Origin: a virus
Taxonomy: Duplodnaviria > Heunggongvirae > Uroviricota > Caudoviricetes
Length of the DNA stretch: 39,533 nt
Direction: 5' to 3' (one strand)
Virus record (IMG/VR): IMGVR_UViG_2547132281_000008
Coordinates: 1-39,533 of that record
Position 1 is the first letter of the stretch, and every line of letters begins with the position of its first letter. A program made the position numbers. Shown here piece by piece: positions 9,001 through 15,000 of this stretch.

Positions 9001-12000
9001 ACAGGGAGAGACGTTTACCATCCACCAGGGCGAAGTTTCGGGTGCATGCCTAACGCCGCCACCCTTGGGGGAATAACACCGGCGCAGTGGCTGATGGAGG
9101 AATACAGGCGGGGAAAGGCGGCAGGATTTATCAAGTAATACCAGCGCGATAGCGCATTTTTTTACGCCTTGATAATTACCTGATGGGTAACAAAATATTC
9201 TAAACTCTATTGATTTCGTGTCTTATGTGGTTTTTAATTACCTCAGAGGTAAATCATGAGAAAACAGATACAGGCTCTTGGTCGACTCAAAACAGGCCAG
9301 ATGAACAAAACAGAATCTGCGTATTGCCAGCACCTTGAGCAGCGTAAACGTGCAGGGGAAATCGCCTGGTATCGATTCGAGGGTATCAAGCTGCGGTTAG
9401 CTGATAACACGTTTTATACGCCCGATTTCGCTGTGATGCTCGCCACCGGAGAGATGGAACTGCACGAAGTGAAAGGGGGATTCTGGACCGACGACGCCAG
9501 GGTGAAAACCAAAGTCGCCGCAGATCAGTATCCGTTCCGAATCATCGGGGTAACGGTTAAACCAAAGAAAGCAGGTGGTGGCTGGAACATCGAAGAGTTC
9601 TGAATCGACGATCTTTTTAGTTATCAATGTAATCAATAAGTTATGTGGATAAGCGAGGGTAAAGATGGAAAGTAATATCAAAGGGTTAGTTTCCGCCGGG
9701 CATGAGATGGCTTCGGAACTGAAAGCAGAATGTGGTGCCGTTGATATGCGCAGTGTGGCAAAGCTGATCAGCGATTTGGCAACGCAACTGGAAGTGCAAC
9801 TGGTGCGTGCTAATGCGCTGGCCGAAGACCACCAGAGAGCGACTGAGTCAATTAAGCAGGCTGATGCGGCTGTTAAGTTGGCACACGAGAAGTTTTCGGT
9901 GCTGGCTGCGGAGAATGCGAGACTGAAGGCGATATGTGAGGATCGCCGCACGTTCATTATGAATGGCGTGCAGCTTGGTTTTATCAAGGTGCCAACAGTG
10001 GAAACTGATCCAGCTCTTGAAACAATTCGTATCGCCATATCACCACAAAAAACCACTCCAGCTACCGATGCTTTTCTGGCTGAAGTGCGGGCACAGGGTG
10101 TGGATGCTGCTATAGGAGCTGCAAAAAATCTGGTGGCCCAAGAATATGAGTATAAGGATTTCAAAGCGGCGCAGAGTGATTGCTGTATGCACCCTGGTTC
10201 AGACTTGGTAGGGAAGGTTGAAATGACTGAGTGGTTAGTTGACTTTGCTGCCCAGCTTCGCAAGGGAGGGAAACAGTGAGCAAGATTGACTATCAGGCAC
10301 TGCGAGAGGCGGCACAGAACGCGGAAGATTTAGGTGGGATTAAGAATTACAAGCGAGCTGAGCAAGCTGTTGCCGAATTTGAGTCCTTAATAACGCCACA
10401 CATTGTGCTGGCGCTGCTGGATGAACGGGAAAGAAACCAGCAATACATAAAACGCCGCGATCAGGAGAACGAGGATATTGCGCTAACGGTAGGGAAACTG
10501 CGTGTTGAGCTGGAAACCGCAGAGAAGCGCATTGCAGAACTGGAAGCACGGGAAATATCGCTCCCAGAACGTAGCAGCATGCTTCATCGAACAGATTTTC
10601 ACGAGGATTACCAAACGGTAATGGCATACAAAGTTTCTGAGGTCATCGCTGCAATCCGCGCCGCTGGCATTCGCATCAAAGGAGAGTGATATGGCGTTAA
10701 CACACCGCGAACTCTGTCAGATTCAGAGGGTGGAGATTAGACCATGACAAACTTCAGGCGAGCTTATATTAACCGGCGTGGTGCAACGCGTGTAGTAATA
10801 GTTTTGCGACATTACGTGATAAAAATTCCAACATTTAAATCATGGAAACTATTTTTACATGGATTGCTGGCTAACTTGCAGGAACACCAAATGTCGACAA
10901 TTAACGATGCCGCATTATGTCCTGTGATATCAGGTAGCAGAATAGGATTATTTGTGATAATGCCGCGGTGTGAGCCTGTAAATCATAGGGGGTTGTTTTT
11001 TACAGAGTTATGCAGATTGAAAATAACTGGAAAACTTCCTGAAGAATTTTATTTAAGAGATGCCAAGCCAGAGAATTTTGGATATCTCAAATGCCGACTT
11101 GTTAAATTAGACTATGGAGAGTAACTAACTATGACCACTATTACCAAAGAGCGACTGCTGACAATTAAGCAGTGGCGCGAAACATACGGACCTGGTAGCA
11201 ACGTTGTACTGCCAGCAGAAGAAGCGGAAGAACTGGCACGAATTGCTCTGGCATCGCTGGAACGCGAACAGATTCGCCACGAGCATGCCAAATGGTCTGA
11301 CTCCACATTTGGCTGCGTTGGCCCCATTGGTCCACTGAAACACCTCTCAAAAGAGGCACTGGAAGCCGCAGCCGAACCAGAAGATCTTAGCGAGTGGGCT
11401 GATATGCAGTTTCTGTTGTGGGATGCACAGCGCCGTGCTGGCATCAGCGATGCTGAAATTACCGCTGCTATGGAAGATAAATTGAAGATCAACATGGAGC
11501 GCCAGTGGCCTGAGCCAAAAGATGGTGAGCCTCGCTTGCACATTAAAGAACCCGGCAACTATCCGGTAACTCCGGCTGGCTGGATAAGCTGTAGTGAGCG
11601 AATGCCGAACGATAAACAGTATGTTTGGTGTTGGGGTAAGTCTTACGGCTGGACTGAGTGCGATACCTTCGAAGGGTATTACGATTGGTCGAGAAACAAA
11701 TGGTGGGCAGTTACTGACGATGGGGAAGAGCCGGCATCGAAAGTAACCCACTGGATGCATCTACCAGAACCGCCTCAGGAGGTTAACCGTGGCTAACCTG
11801 CAACTTGCCGTTAAAGGTGAATATTTCGACCAGATGAAGTCAGGCGAGAAAACGGAAGAGTATCGCCTGTGTAATGACTACTGGAAAAAGCGAATTATGT
11901 TCCGGAAGTATGACCGCCTGATTATCACAAAGGGATATCCGAAGCGCGACGATTCCAGCCGCAGAATTGATGTTCCGTATGGCGGATATGAAATCAAGAC

Positions 12001-15000
12001 AATCACGCATCCGCACTTCGGTGATAAACCGGTAAAGGTGTTCGCGATAAAGGTGAATATCAATGGCTAAATCAGCAGCAGAGCGCAAAGCCGCTCAGAG
12101 AGCCAGACAAGCTGCATCCGGTGTACGTAAGCTGGAGATTGTGCTTGATGCTCAGGAAATTGAAATGCTGGAGCGTAACTGTGCCACTCGTCGCCCCGGG
12201 CGTGCACCTTACGAATTTGGTGAGTATATCGCGTTACTGATCCGCCAGGATGATGTACGCGTGCGCGGGCGTATAAAATCGATCAGCAGAAAACGTTGCG
12301 GTAAGTGCGGCGAGAGAGTTCCTGTGAATTCATGCCCGTGTAATGGTGACTCGCAATGCTGGGTGACTAAAGGCTGGCATGAAACGAAATTAATAGTGTG
12401 ACATGTCACGAAGGTGTTATGCCAAAAATACGCTACGACCTTGAAGATATGAGAGATAACTCAGCAAATTTTCCGAAAGAGGTTAAATTTCTCATGCATA
12501 AGTATGGTTGCGCCAGGAGGGATATAGTTATCGACAGTCACCACCCTTGCGGCGAGGATGTAATTTTCATTCGCGGTAAATGGGAAGGGTATCTTGACGA
12601 GAGTTTTTACGATGAATTTGATGGACTTTGAATACTGCCGCCAACTATGGCGGCTTTATTTTGCATGGTACTATTACCATAACGGTAACAATTACCAGGG
12701 TGGTTATTATGCCTGCTGAACCTAAAACCTATAAACGCAAATCAACGCAATTTAAGCCGCTCACAGCAATGCAGGAGGCTTATTGCCAGTCATACATCAA
12801 AACGCCTGAAAACCAGACTCAGGCAGCGATTAACGCAGGATTCTCCCCAAATACAGCGGCAGTTAAAGCCAGCGTCATGATGCGCGATGAACGCATTCAA
12901 AAACGGATTGCCGAGTTGATGGAAGAGCGCAACAAACGAATGCGCGTCAGTGCTGATTACGTTCTCATGCGCCTGGTGGAGATCGACCAGATGGACGTGA
13001 TTGATATCCTCAACGACGATGGGAGTCTTAAGCCAATCCGTGAGTGGCCGAAAATATGGCGCACTACGCTTAGCGGCTTTGATCTGTCATCGACCATCAT
13101 GAACATGAACGAGGACTCGATAGAGACAATCCTCCAAAAAATTAAATGGCCTGACAAGGTGAAGAACCTAGAACTGATTGGTAAGCACGTCGACGTCAAC
13201 GCATTTAAAGAACGCCTGGATGTTAATGTGAATGTGACAATTGCTGATCGCATAGCGGCAGCCAGGAAGCGACTCAAAGAACGTCAGGATGGTAATCAGT
13301 GACAGATACAGCGTTATCTCCTGAAGAGCAGTTGATCGAGGATATTGCAGGGTTCACTCACGATCCGCTTGGCTATGCCCTCTATGCGTTCCCGTGGGGG
13401 GAAGAGGGGACTGAACTGGCACATGCTACCGGCCCACGTCAGTGGCAGGCCGATGCGTTCCGAGAGATACGTGACCACCTGCAGAATCCAGAGACGCGCT
13501 ATCAGCCGCTTATGCTGGCACGTGCTTCGGGTCACGGTATTGGTAAATCCGCATTCATCTCAATGCTGATCAACTGGGGCATGTCCACTTGCGAGGATTG
13601 TAAGGTCGTGGTAACCGCCAACACCGACAACCAGCTACGAACGAAGACCTGGCCGGAAATTATCAAGTGGTCGAACCTTGCTATCACGAAAGACTGGTTT
13701 ACCTGTACCGCTACCGCGATGTATAGCAATGATCCTGGACACGACAAGCGGTGGCGAGCTGACGCAATCCCCTGGTCTGAGCACAACACTGAGGCATTCG
13801 CCGGACTACACAACGAGCGCAAACGCATCATCGTGGTATTCGATGAAGCGTCGAACATTGCGGATCTGGTGTGGGAAGTTGCCGAGGGTGCGCTTACGGA
13901 CGAAGACACTGAGATTATTTGGGTGGCGTTCGGAAACCCGACGCGTAATACCGGACGTTTCCGCGAATGTTTCCGCAAATATAAACACCGCTGGAAAACT
14001 GCGCAGATTGACAGCCGGACGGTGGAAGGCACTAACAAACAGCAGTTGCAGAAATGGGTTGATGACTACGGGGAAGACAGCGACTTCGTTAAAATCCGTG
14101 TGCGCGGCATATTCCCGGATGCATCTGAATTGCAGTTTATCCCTACCGGACTTACTGACGAGGCAATGAAACGGGTGGTCACCGCTGCGCAGGTTGCACA
14201 TGCTCCGGTGATAATCGGCGTTGACCCGGCATACTCAGGCGTTGATGACGCGGTGATATACCTGCGGCAGGGGCTGCACAGTAAGGTGCTATGGACTGGT
14301 AACAAGACCACCGACGATCTGATTATGGCGAAGCGTATCGCTGACTTTGAAGACCAGTACCAGGCTGACGCGGTGTTCATCGACTTCGGTTACGGAACCG
14401 GTCTGAAGTCAATCGGTGACGGATGGGGTCGTACATGGCAACTTGTTCCGTTCGGTGGCGCGTCTACTGACCCGCAGATGCTCAACAAGCGTGGGGAGAT
14501 GTTCAATTCATGCAAGACATGGCTGAGGCTGGGCGGCATACTGGATGACCAGGAAACAGCAGACGACCTGTCGGCGGCAGAGTACAAAGTTCGTGTGGAC
14601 GGTAAAATCGTTATCGAACCGAAGGAAGATATCAAAGAGCGTCTTGGGCGTTCGCCGGGTAAAGGCGATGCGCTACTGCTGACGTTTGCGTTCCCTGTGT
14701 CGAAGCGTCTGCGAATTCCTGGGCAGCAGAACCAGCAAGGCAAGGCCATCACAGATTATGACCCGTATGCTTAATCCGCTGGTGGGGATAATGTCGTTGA
14801 TATCCTCTGATGAGGATAAAACAAAGCCAGCTCATCGGCTGGCTGTTTGTGACATGTCACGGTGTTATTGCTCGCTTAGCTTCTGCTTCAGCAAGTAACC
14901 TTCGAGCATCCAGATTTTGTTTACAGCATTCTGCCGGGCAATCTTCCGACCAATTTCTGCATCAAAGTTTTCCGGGCTTGCACAGGCGCTCTCTCCGGTG

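Follow-up and report, generated by a model that had tools for sequence, protein, structure and literature searches.

Introduction

Lambdoid phages carry non-essential, mosaic runs of small co-oriented genes behind their replication and recombination genes, as in the nin region of lambda and the ea regions of P22 and lambda (exo-xis). This article describes a region of this type, a cluster of five genes (ORF1 to ORF5, positions 10744-12631) in a viral DNA of 39,533 nucleotides (nt) (IMG/VR record IMGVR_UViG_2547132281_000008, positions 1 to 39,533, the whole of which is called the window hereafter) that represents a temperate phiV10/epsilon15-like (Uetakevirus-type) podophage of Escherichia coli. 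A preliminary description had located five genes between the replication and packaging functions and had proposed that they form a counter-defence block. The genes and their location were confirmed: all five lie on the + strand, each with a Shine-Dalgarno sequence and conserved homologs, downstream of a DnaT-like O gene and a lambda-P-like gene and upstream of the terminase genes terS and terL. With regard to their nature, a different reading is favoured here with fairly good confidence: the interval closes the early-right (replication) operon as its promoter-distal tail and is composed of four exchangeable cassettes and a putative regulator, ORF4, instead of being one system.

By analogy, the counterparts of the interval would be the nin region of lambda and the ea region of P22, with which it has in common the Ead/Ea22, EaA/DUF550, DUF551, NinX and ASCH families as well as a conserved short junction at a cassette boundary. 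It differs from them in belonging to a phiV10/epsilon15-like podovirus, in ending at terS and not at a Q gene and lysis cassette, and in containing a mini-kinase otherwise found mainly in jumbo phages.

Independent Inheritance of the Five Genes

Close relatives were selected by their ORF4 (at least 97% identity), 63 with enough upstream sequence and 77 for the analysis of ORF5 and terS. ORF1 was present in none of the 63, the DUF550 and DUF551 domains of ORF2 in 4 and 8, respectively, and ASCH (ORF3) in 40; ORF5 occurred in 25 of the 77, the remaining relatives retaining just its last ~20 nt, and terS in all 77. The interval between the DUF1064 gene and ORF4 was filled by 58 gene clusters in 59 close relatives, mostly domains of unknown function (DUFs) plus Ead/Ea22, NinX, HNH and a Mom-like protein, and the ORF1 and ORF2 families were also found at non-homologous positions in other phages. 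Because the genes are distributed independently, 58 clusters fill the slot, and ORF1 with the 5' end of ORF2 travels elsewhere, ORF1-ORF5 represent cassettes assembled by chance around a single backbone gene and not a co-evolving system. ORF1, ORF2, ORF3 and ORF5 are independently exchangeable accessory cassettes, and their expression probably accompanies that of the replication genes in the lytic cycle.

This distribution bears directly on the earlier proposal of a single block, in which the five products would jointly neutralise nucleotide-signalling or abortive-infection systems. The co-orientation and tight packing of all five genes in one operon, the domain types with anti-defence precedents (T7/JSS1 kinases, MazG-like Atd1) and the known anti-defence families in equivalent slots of other phages speak for such a block. 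It is nevertheless judged very improbable, as relatives do not carry the genes together, ORF4 is a DNA-binding backbone gene and putative regulator with a candidate cis site of its own, ORF1 shows no sequence relationship to T7 gp0.7, and ORF2 is a DUF550 protein and not a canonical MazG.

Within the cluster, neighbouring genes overlap by 8 nt or are separated by gaps of 6-17 nt, and ORF1 and ORF5 show a foreign base composition. No sigma-70-type + strand promoter was predicted at 9197-12700 by a consensus scan, and a convincing + strand terminator was detected only after ORF5, two weak hairpins of 5-6 pairs inside ORF4 and ORF5 being disregarded. The moron-like guanine-cytosine (GC) content of ORF1 and ORF5 would suit an explanation in which these are genes expressed by the prophage that protect the lysogen through superinfection exclusion or defence. 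That explanation is most unlikely given the lack of a predicted + strand promoter inside the cluster and of a terminator between its genes, the translational coupling to the lytic early operon, and the result of a PADLOC scan, in which the five proteins matched no family at an E-value (E) of up to 0.1 (the library consists of defence-system proteins, not of anti-defence proteins).

Some observations weigh against the reading as an operon tail with independent cassettes. ASCH accompanies ORF4 in 63% of the relatives, so some linkage exists; ORF1 was always accompanied by the 5' end of ORF2 (3/3 contexts), and the two may form a small functional pair; and promoter prediction was a simple consensus search only.

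Boundaries of the Variable Segment and of the Early Operon

The left edge of the variable segment is a conserved 17-bp junction, AAGGAGAGTGATATGGC (10679-10695, + strand), which spans the end of the Ead/Ea22-like gene (its last codons and stop), a Shine-Dalgarno sequence and the ATG that comes next. One copy is present in the window versus 0.05 expected (up to 3 mismatches). An exact single copy was found in 27 of 99 loci, where its distance to ORF4 varies, and the ORF1 cassette common to loci L083 and L097 begins at this junction. Reading of the sequence by eye also revealed an 18-codon leader ORF (MALTHRELCQIQRVEIRP and a stop codon; 10691-10747, + strand) whose stop overlaps the ORF1 start (ATGA). 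Its N-terminus, MALTHRELCQI..., also begins a longer accessory ORF in relatives, and to judge from this likeness the leader looks like a remnant, the 5' end of another accessory gene.

At the other side, an intrinsic terminator between ORF5 and terS, GCCGCCAACTATGGCGGC followed by a T-run (12637-12662, + strand; hairpin at 12637-12654), ends the early-right operon ahead of terS. It was present in 81 of 81 related loci, and the corresponding part of phiV10 has an annotated terminator feature. The segment 12626-12712, which includes the terminator, folds with -30.9 kcal/mol (z -4.27). No sigma-70 late promoter was found between ORF4 and terS by the scan, nor by eye in variants lacking ORF5; an Rfam search of 10600-13000 returned no RNA family, and an NCBIfam scan of the five proteins gave nothing usable.

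The first late gene, terS (small terminase, + strand), most likely starts at ATG 12709 (12709-13302) rather than at the first TTG, 12628, which is the longest-ORF start. Pfam Terminase_2 begins at residue 45 of the long ORF, the ATG start gives 594 nt, the length of TL-2011b gp21, and the terS leader is nearly invariant; this start leaves a 77-nt spacer carrying the strong intrinsic terminator. For ORF5 the start is most likely ATG 12419, which gives 70 amino acids (aa) as in the A33 prophage, so that the longest-ORF starts of both genes are probably wrong in the annotation. In the nearly invariant leader (12655-12712), a hairpin can pair the terS Shine-Dalgarno sequence and start codon and may control terS translation; a mismatch in its stem was seen by eye in relatives. 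The leader also holds two (A/T)ATTACCA repeats, 18 bp apart. As a signal the WATTACCA repeats were unconvincing (6 copies versus 2.1 expected).

ORF4 and the GTGAC-N2-GTCAC Palindrome

In lambda, the antiterminator Q and its qut/QBE site stand at the passage from early to late genes, and the arrangement around ORF4 resembles it: ORF4 ends the early operon and is followed by a candidate cis site and terminator and then by the late genes. ORF4 (12063-12401, + strand; 112 aa) is a conserved DNA-binding backbone gene with a probable regulatory role. It had been described as a Cys-rich, putative zinc-binding protein; four conserved cysteines are present (C79, C82, C91/C93 and C99, of which the family retains C79-x2-C82 ... 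C ... C99) and form a ribbon behind a long helix, and the N-terminal half turned out to be a DNA-binding domain with the ribbon-helix-helix (RHH) fold. The protein is assigned to phrog_536, 'transcriptional regulator'. A total of 701 homologs were found; the best 120 listed are at least 76% identical, most of them exactly 112 aa long, and come from Escherichia, Salmonella, Citrobacter, Klebsiella and Edwardsiella. An exhaustive search gave 148 representatives at 50% identity, the near-full-length ones being ~105-135 aa long.

In four phage architectures, ORF4-like genes close an early operon or lie close to its distal end. The gene precedes terS in the window phage and lies immediately, or by a few genes, upstream of holin/lysis genes in the lambdoid-type loci L088, L091 and L093; it stands directly before a Q gene in L090, before gemA-mor in the Mu-like L107, and after gpA, facing convergent late genes, in the P2-like L102.

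The stop codon of ORF4 is overlapped by the palindrome GTGACATGTCAC (site 1, 12398-12409), a candidate ORF4 operator. Three exact copies are present in the window versus 0.01 expected, all at gene 3' ends and adjoining GC-rich hairpins or terminators. Site 2 (14849-14860) is situated between the 3' end of terL, with a hairpin at 14825-14844, and the 3' end of a Phage_gp49_66 gene on the - strand, and a terminator hairpin (32373-32390) begins immediately after site 3 (32361-32372). In most relatives sites 1 and 2, the copies that the fetched loci span, are kept at the same place. A fourth variant, GTGACCCGTCAC, occurs at 33286-33297. The rightward late operon is interrupted by two reverse-strand ORFs, the Phage_gp49_66 gene (14865-15221) and a 107-aa ORF (32397-32720), each with a palindrome copy just past its 3' end.

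The coupling of gene and palindrome extends to distant phages. The palindrome was found at the stop codon of ORF4-like genes in at least five divergent lineages (30-45% protein identity); in distant lineages, the element at this place is exact in L093, GTGACAGGTCAC in L087 and L100, and GTGACGCGTCAC in L101-L104. In L106-L125, GTGACCGGTCAC occupies the corresponding position near the gene 3' end but lies inside a C-terminally extended ORF, where by our reading it encodes VTGH of the P0195 C-terminus (...NLTDVTGH...); this argues for a conservation of the DNA element independently of coding. A scan of IMG/VR for TGTGACATGTCACG placed 39 of 135 motif sites no more than 15 nt from the point where an ORF4-like gene ends, and an adjacent GC-rich hairpin was seven-fold enriched at motif sites (26% vs 3.6%). 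In the unrelated IMG/VR viral contigs L146, L165, L175, L194 and L232, the palindrome occurs within dense GTGAC/GTCAC half-site arrays, which look like iterons or multi-operator regions.

ORF4 most likely binds GTGAC-N2-GTCAC. Such binding would probably control transcription at operon boundaries, including the early-to-late boundary before terS, and the action there could consist of promoting read-through, of blocking it, or of autoregulation only. In temperate phages of Gammaproteobacteria, whether podo-, lambdoid, Mu-like or P2-like, the pair may govern the boundaries of transcription units, the early-to-late switch among them. No description of it was found in the literature, nor one of late-gene control in phiV10/epsilon15-like phages in the literature searched. 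That ORF4 and the palindrome constitute a widespread, undescribed protein/cis-site pair and, independently, that ORF1 is a smaller kinase-like domain than the solved chains listed below, is put forward tentatively. Several facts count against the pairing: the binding is deduced from co-location only, 80 of the 135 motif sites have no ORF4-like gene in the fetched stretch, no palindrome was found in three ORF4 lineages (L090, L091/L092), and L090 and L091 encode Q-type antiterminators alongside their ORF4-like genes.

This last coexistence led to the rejection of ORF4 as a simple substitute for Q, which the P2-like context also weakens. Unlike lambda Q, ORF4 has no Q family in Pfam (Phage_antitermQ and Phage_antiter_Q gave no match for ORF4 and do not figure in the 25 families most often matched by 56 members), no promoter can be discerned at the palindrome site, and the ORF4-palindrome element of P2-like phages faces convergent late genes. 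A TraR/DksA-like binder of RNA polymerase was also discarded as an identity for ORF4, since its profile matched TraR and YbiI in the PDB at E 0.035 only; PF01258 was absent from the 25 Pfam families most often matched by the 56 members, which matched 43 families in all.

The half-sites are identical to those of matS, the E. coli MatP site (GTGACRNYGTCAC, 13 bp), the phage palindrome having 12 bp and a spacing one base shorter. A homology of ORF4 to MatP was rejected (hhalign probability 0.45%), the DNA half-sites and the RHH fold being all that the two have in common: ORF4 carries a Cys4 ribbon instead of a four-helix bundle and coiled coil and, unlike matS, the palindromes adjoin terminators in a phage genome. 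The ORF4-palindrome pair could interfere with the host MatP/matS system.

ORF1, a Mini Protein-Kinase-Like Domain

The smallest solved chains listed for minimal kinases (OspG, HopBF1, archaeal Ark1/ArkI, Bud32, RIO) have 169-216 residues. ORF1 (10744-11124, + strand) is a stand-alone mini protein-kinase-like domain of 126 aa with an N-lobe, a D106-A-K-P-E-N111 loop and D123-Y-G. It had been described as a kinase-like fragment, of which the first part is borne out by fold and catalytic residues; since its homologs measure 118-147 aa, the protein is full-length and should not be labelled a fragment in annotation. No Pfam family was matched, and the PHROG assignment was phrog_4301 (function not assigned). 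K27, E47, N111 and D123 are invariant across 20 family members; D106 and K108 occur in 17 of these aligned sequences and are missing from the three most divergent. The catalytic set is complete in ORF1 (beta3 Lys, helix C Glu, D-x-K-x-x-N, DFG-type Asp), the C-terminus reading D-Y-G-E.

An AlphaFold model with the family alignment as input reached a pLDDT of 91.7 and contains the N-lobe beta-sheet with helix C, the catalytic loop and the DFG strand. Its structural matches were protein-kinase-like folds only, and a BFVD structural search returned small phage kinase-like proteins of 117-235 aa, mostly uncharacterised. As the protein stops three residues after the DFG-type Asp D123, the whole C-lobe is missing; in comparison with the minimal kinases, ORF1 ends right after the DFG-type motif and has no activation segment, APE or C-lobe helices (F-I), nor a Pfam family. 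ORF1 may be a catalytically competent kinase-like domain in a size class of 118-130 aa, smaller than the small solved chains listed. It would bind ATP-Mg and pass phosphate to a host or phage target and, having no C-lobe, probably requires a partner or oligomerisation.

Like the broad anti-defence kinases T7 gp0.7 and JSS1, ORF1 is phage-encoded, has a kinase fold and is probably expressed early. In contrast to these similarities, no sequence relationship to gp0.7 was detectable: ORF1 was rejected as a gp0.7 relative at an hhalign probability of 0.3%, and gp0.7 was not among the named top 50 BFVD structural matches, several rows of which are unnamed. The jumbo phage 121Q (L084) encodes gp205, annotated as a T7 0.7-type protein kinase, and ten genes downstream gp215, a homolog of the mini-kinase; the hhalign probability of 0.3% between ORF1 and gp205 is uninformative because only the cut 5' part of gp205 was compared.

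With a GC content of 37.8% versus ~50% in its neighbours, the ORF1 gene is horizontally acquired. Among 5,426 complete E. coli genomes it was found in two, both times on plasmids (80 and 93 kb), the larger of which resembles a P1-type phage-plasmid (phd/doc genes). Distant homologs (<60% identity) occur in Asteriusvirus jumbo phages (e.g., 121Q gp215) and in Aeromonas, Erwinia and Ralstonia phages, so the family is common to jumbo and temperate phages, and its genomic settings elsewhere are P1-like plasmids, a P22-like PL (early-left) region and jumbo phages. In L097, a homolog 98% identical to ORF1 has an Anti-RecBCD Abc2 gene two genes upstream. ORF1 and the 5' end of ORF2 are common as a unit to the P1-like plasmid and the P22-like contig.

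ORF2, an EaA-Like DUF550-DUF551 Protein

DUF550 enzymes are described from phages with 2-aminoadenine (Z) genomes. The Pfam name 'dATP/dGTP pyrophosphohydrolase' derives from the DUF550 enzyme of Acinetobacter phage SH-Ab 15497, which supplies dGMP and removes dATP for such genomes. ORF2 (11131-11796, + strand; 221 aa) is an EaA-like protein of three modules: a leader (residues 1-45), DUF550/PF04447 (48-143; E 3.7e-42, 142.9 bits against a cut-off of 23) and DUF551 (150-216; E 1.8e-16). The modules were also matched in PHROG. The earlier designation as a fusion of a MazG-like domain and DUF551 thus holds for the PF04447-DUF551 fusion and fails for the canonical MazG family, which was not matched; PF04447 and PF04448 were the only Pfam families found at E up to 0.1.

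In a weak phmmer alignment (E 0.42), E75, E78, E88, D91 and R124 of ORF2 fall on E35, E38, E50, D53 and R83 of S-2L MazZ (7ODY), which are the acidic metal ligands and the transition-state/catalytic Arg. On account of these aligned residues, ORF2 is likely an active NTP pyrophosphohydrolase, which would hydrolyse purine (d)NTPs to (d)NMP and pyrophosphate. ORF2 is like the MazZ/DUF550 proteins of Z-genome phages (S-2L, SH-Ab 15497) in its PF04447 match and in keeping the four acidic ligands and the Arg; it is unlike them in its fusion to DUF551 and to an EaA-type N-terminal module, and a role in dZTP synthesis is impossible here. No PurZ, DatZ or phage polymerase (DpoZ) was found among the early-region ORFs scanned (at least 70 aa), so the Z-genome pathway does not apply to this phage and is not implied by the family name in annotations. 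The only families matched in that scan were integrase, MT-A70, RecT, PDDEXK, HTH, DnaT-like and lambda P, and the phage depends on host replication.

A role of ORF2 in nucleotide-pool housekeeping, sanitising or rebalancing dNTP pools for replication with the other genes as neutral cargo, would fit the action of DUF550 enzymes on dATP and dGTP, the position of the gene within the replication operon and the presence of the homolog eaA in the P22 ea region. This explanation appears rather unlikely, as PurZ, DatZ and a phage-encoded polymerase are lacking and host replication is used instead, ORF2 occurs in just ~6% of near-identical phages and is hence dispensable, and the DUF551 fusion and the common N-terminal module suggest targeting over bulk metabolism.

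The distribution of ORF2 agrees with the preferred reading of an exchangeable cassette. Among full-length relatives the nearest, at 79% identity, is encoded by the P22-like phage Kapi1 in its early-left ea region; P22 eaA has the DUF550 part in common with ORF2, and ORF2-type genes occur in the PL ea region of both P22 and Kapi1. Many proteins encoded in the slot between DUF1064 and ORF4 of relatives (L003-L082) combine a constant N-terminal MTTITKER...ARIALASLE and a C-terminal DUF551 (...WMPLPEPPQEVNRG) with unrelated middles, and look like a modular, recombining protein family.

ORF3 and ORF5

ORF3 (11789-12070, + strand; 93 aa) is a small ASCH-like (PUA-like) protein with a G19-x-K21-x-x-E24-x-R26 motif. 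It matched phrog_625 at E 7e-50. G19, K21, E24 and R26 are invariant in 24 homologs; this GxKxxExR-type motif we take to be the ASCH signature. The previous assignment to ASCH is supported by the invariant motif and by the NCBI name of the family (ASCH), with the reservation that Pfam ASCH (PF04266) was matched below the cut-off (E 0.026; 15.7 bits vs 21.2), weak matches being obtained in 8 of the 24 homologs. The family profile found no relevant match in the PDB. An identity as a YqfB-type N4-acetylcytidine amidohydrolase was rejected: in a motif-only alignment, E24 replaces the nucleophile Thr24, with K21 and R26 kept. ORF3 would bind or process a modified nucleotide or RNA.

ORF5 (12419-12631, + strand; 70 aa, GC 41%, phrog_1541) is an optional insert. 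The former small unknown can now be named as a homolog of T4 UvsY.-1, with ~50% identity, which is itself a conserved hypothetical gene adjoining uvsY in ~690 T4-like phage records. No meaningful match to solved structures was obtained.

Counter-Defence Potential of Single Genes

Anti-defence precedents have been published for phage kinases (T7/JSS1) and for the MazG-like pyrophosphatase Atd1. This analysis produced no supporting result for a direct anti-defence activity of any of ORF1-ORF5. Accessory genes accumulate in this slot as in a hot spot, and in other phages it is occupied at times by families with known counter-defence roles: a Mom-like protein, an Acb2/Tad1-hairpin protein (L087) and a weak Lar match (L088) were found in equivalent positions. 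What remains of the rationale for counter-defence are the domain guesses, the hyper-variable slot and the precedents, ORF1 and ORF2 being outside the precedent families; it is possible and reasonable to consider ORF1, ORF2 or ORF3 singly in this light.

That at least one of these three is an individual anti-defence gene is compatible with the cassette reading and is regarded as a possible, if doubtful, addition to it; for example, ORF1 could phosphorylate defence proteins and ORF2 could destroy a purine-nucleotide signal or alarmone. The intact catalytic residues of ORF1 and ORF2, the presumed expression with the early operon, the high mobility and patchy distribution typical of anti-defence genes, the location of the 98% ORF1 homolog two genes downstream of anti-RecBCD abc2, and the precedents among kinases and MazG-like Atd1 argue for this possibility, set against which no homology to characterised anti-defence proteins was found, the sole characterised DUF550 activity belongs to Z-genome nucleotide metabolism, and the majority of genes in regions of this sort are functionally uncharacterised.

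A more conventional anti-restriction candidate than ORF1-ORF5 is the MT-A70 family adenine methyltransferase of the leftward early operon (1446-2096, - strand).

Genome Context

Phage phiv142-3 matched the first 20 kb of the window (97.4% over 88%), and gene order is the same as in TL-2011b and in an E. coli A33 prophage. Searches of phage records and complete E. coli genomes gave no entry with at least 80% coverage of the region. The order in the window is integrase, leftward recombination operon (MT-A70 methylase, RecT, PDDEXK protein), repressor and rightward operon. The latter runs from the DnaT-like O gene (the initiator, 7541-8356) and the lambda-P-like gene (8338-9138), both of replication, through DUF1064, an eae-like gene and Ead/Ea22, which are three further accessory-type genes between gene P and ORF1, to ORF1-ORF5, terS and terL.

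A 344-aa ORF in the leftward recombination operon (4859-5893, - strand) had no Pfam match at E up to 0.001. A low-GC segment (32850-36309; 30-44% vs ~50%) contains a 765-aa gene without Pfam match, which is probably the tailspike, and an Acyl_transf_3 O-acyltransferase; its content is consistent with O-antigen modification and serotype conversion of the phiV10 kind.

Concluding Remarks

As a counter-defence block the region is mostly ordinary, another mosaic accessory region of lambdoid-phage type with no tie to a particular defence system. Two parts of it are unusual, the mini-kinase and the arrangement of ORF4, palindrome and terminator. If active, a 126-aa kinase-fold protein that keeps all catalytic residues would bear on the minimal requirements of the kinase fold, and ORF1 would also be a candidate for phage-host modification. 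The ORF4-palindrome pair would give phiV10/epsilon15-like phages a candidate early/late boundary regulator and constitutes a testable protein-DNA pair across four phage architectures, with half-sites as in the host matS.

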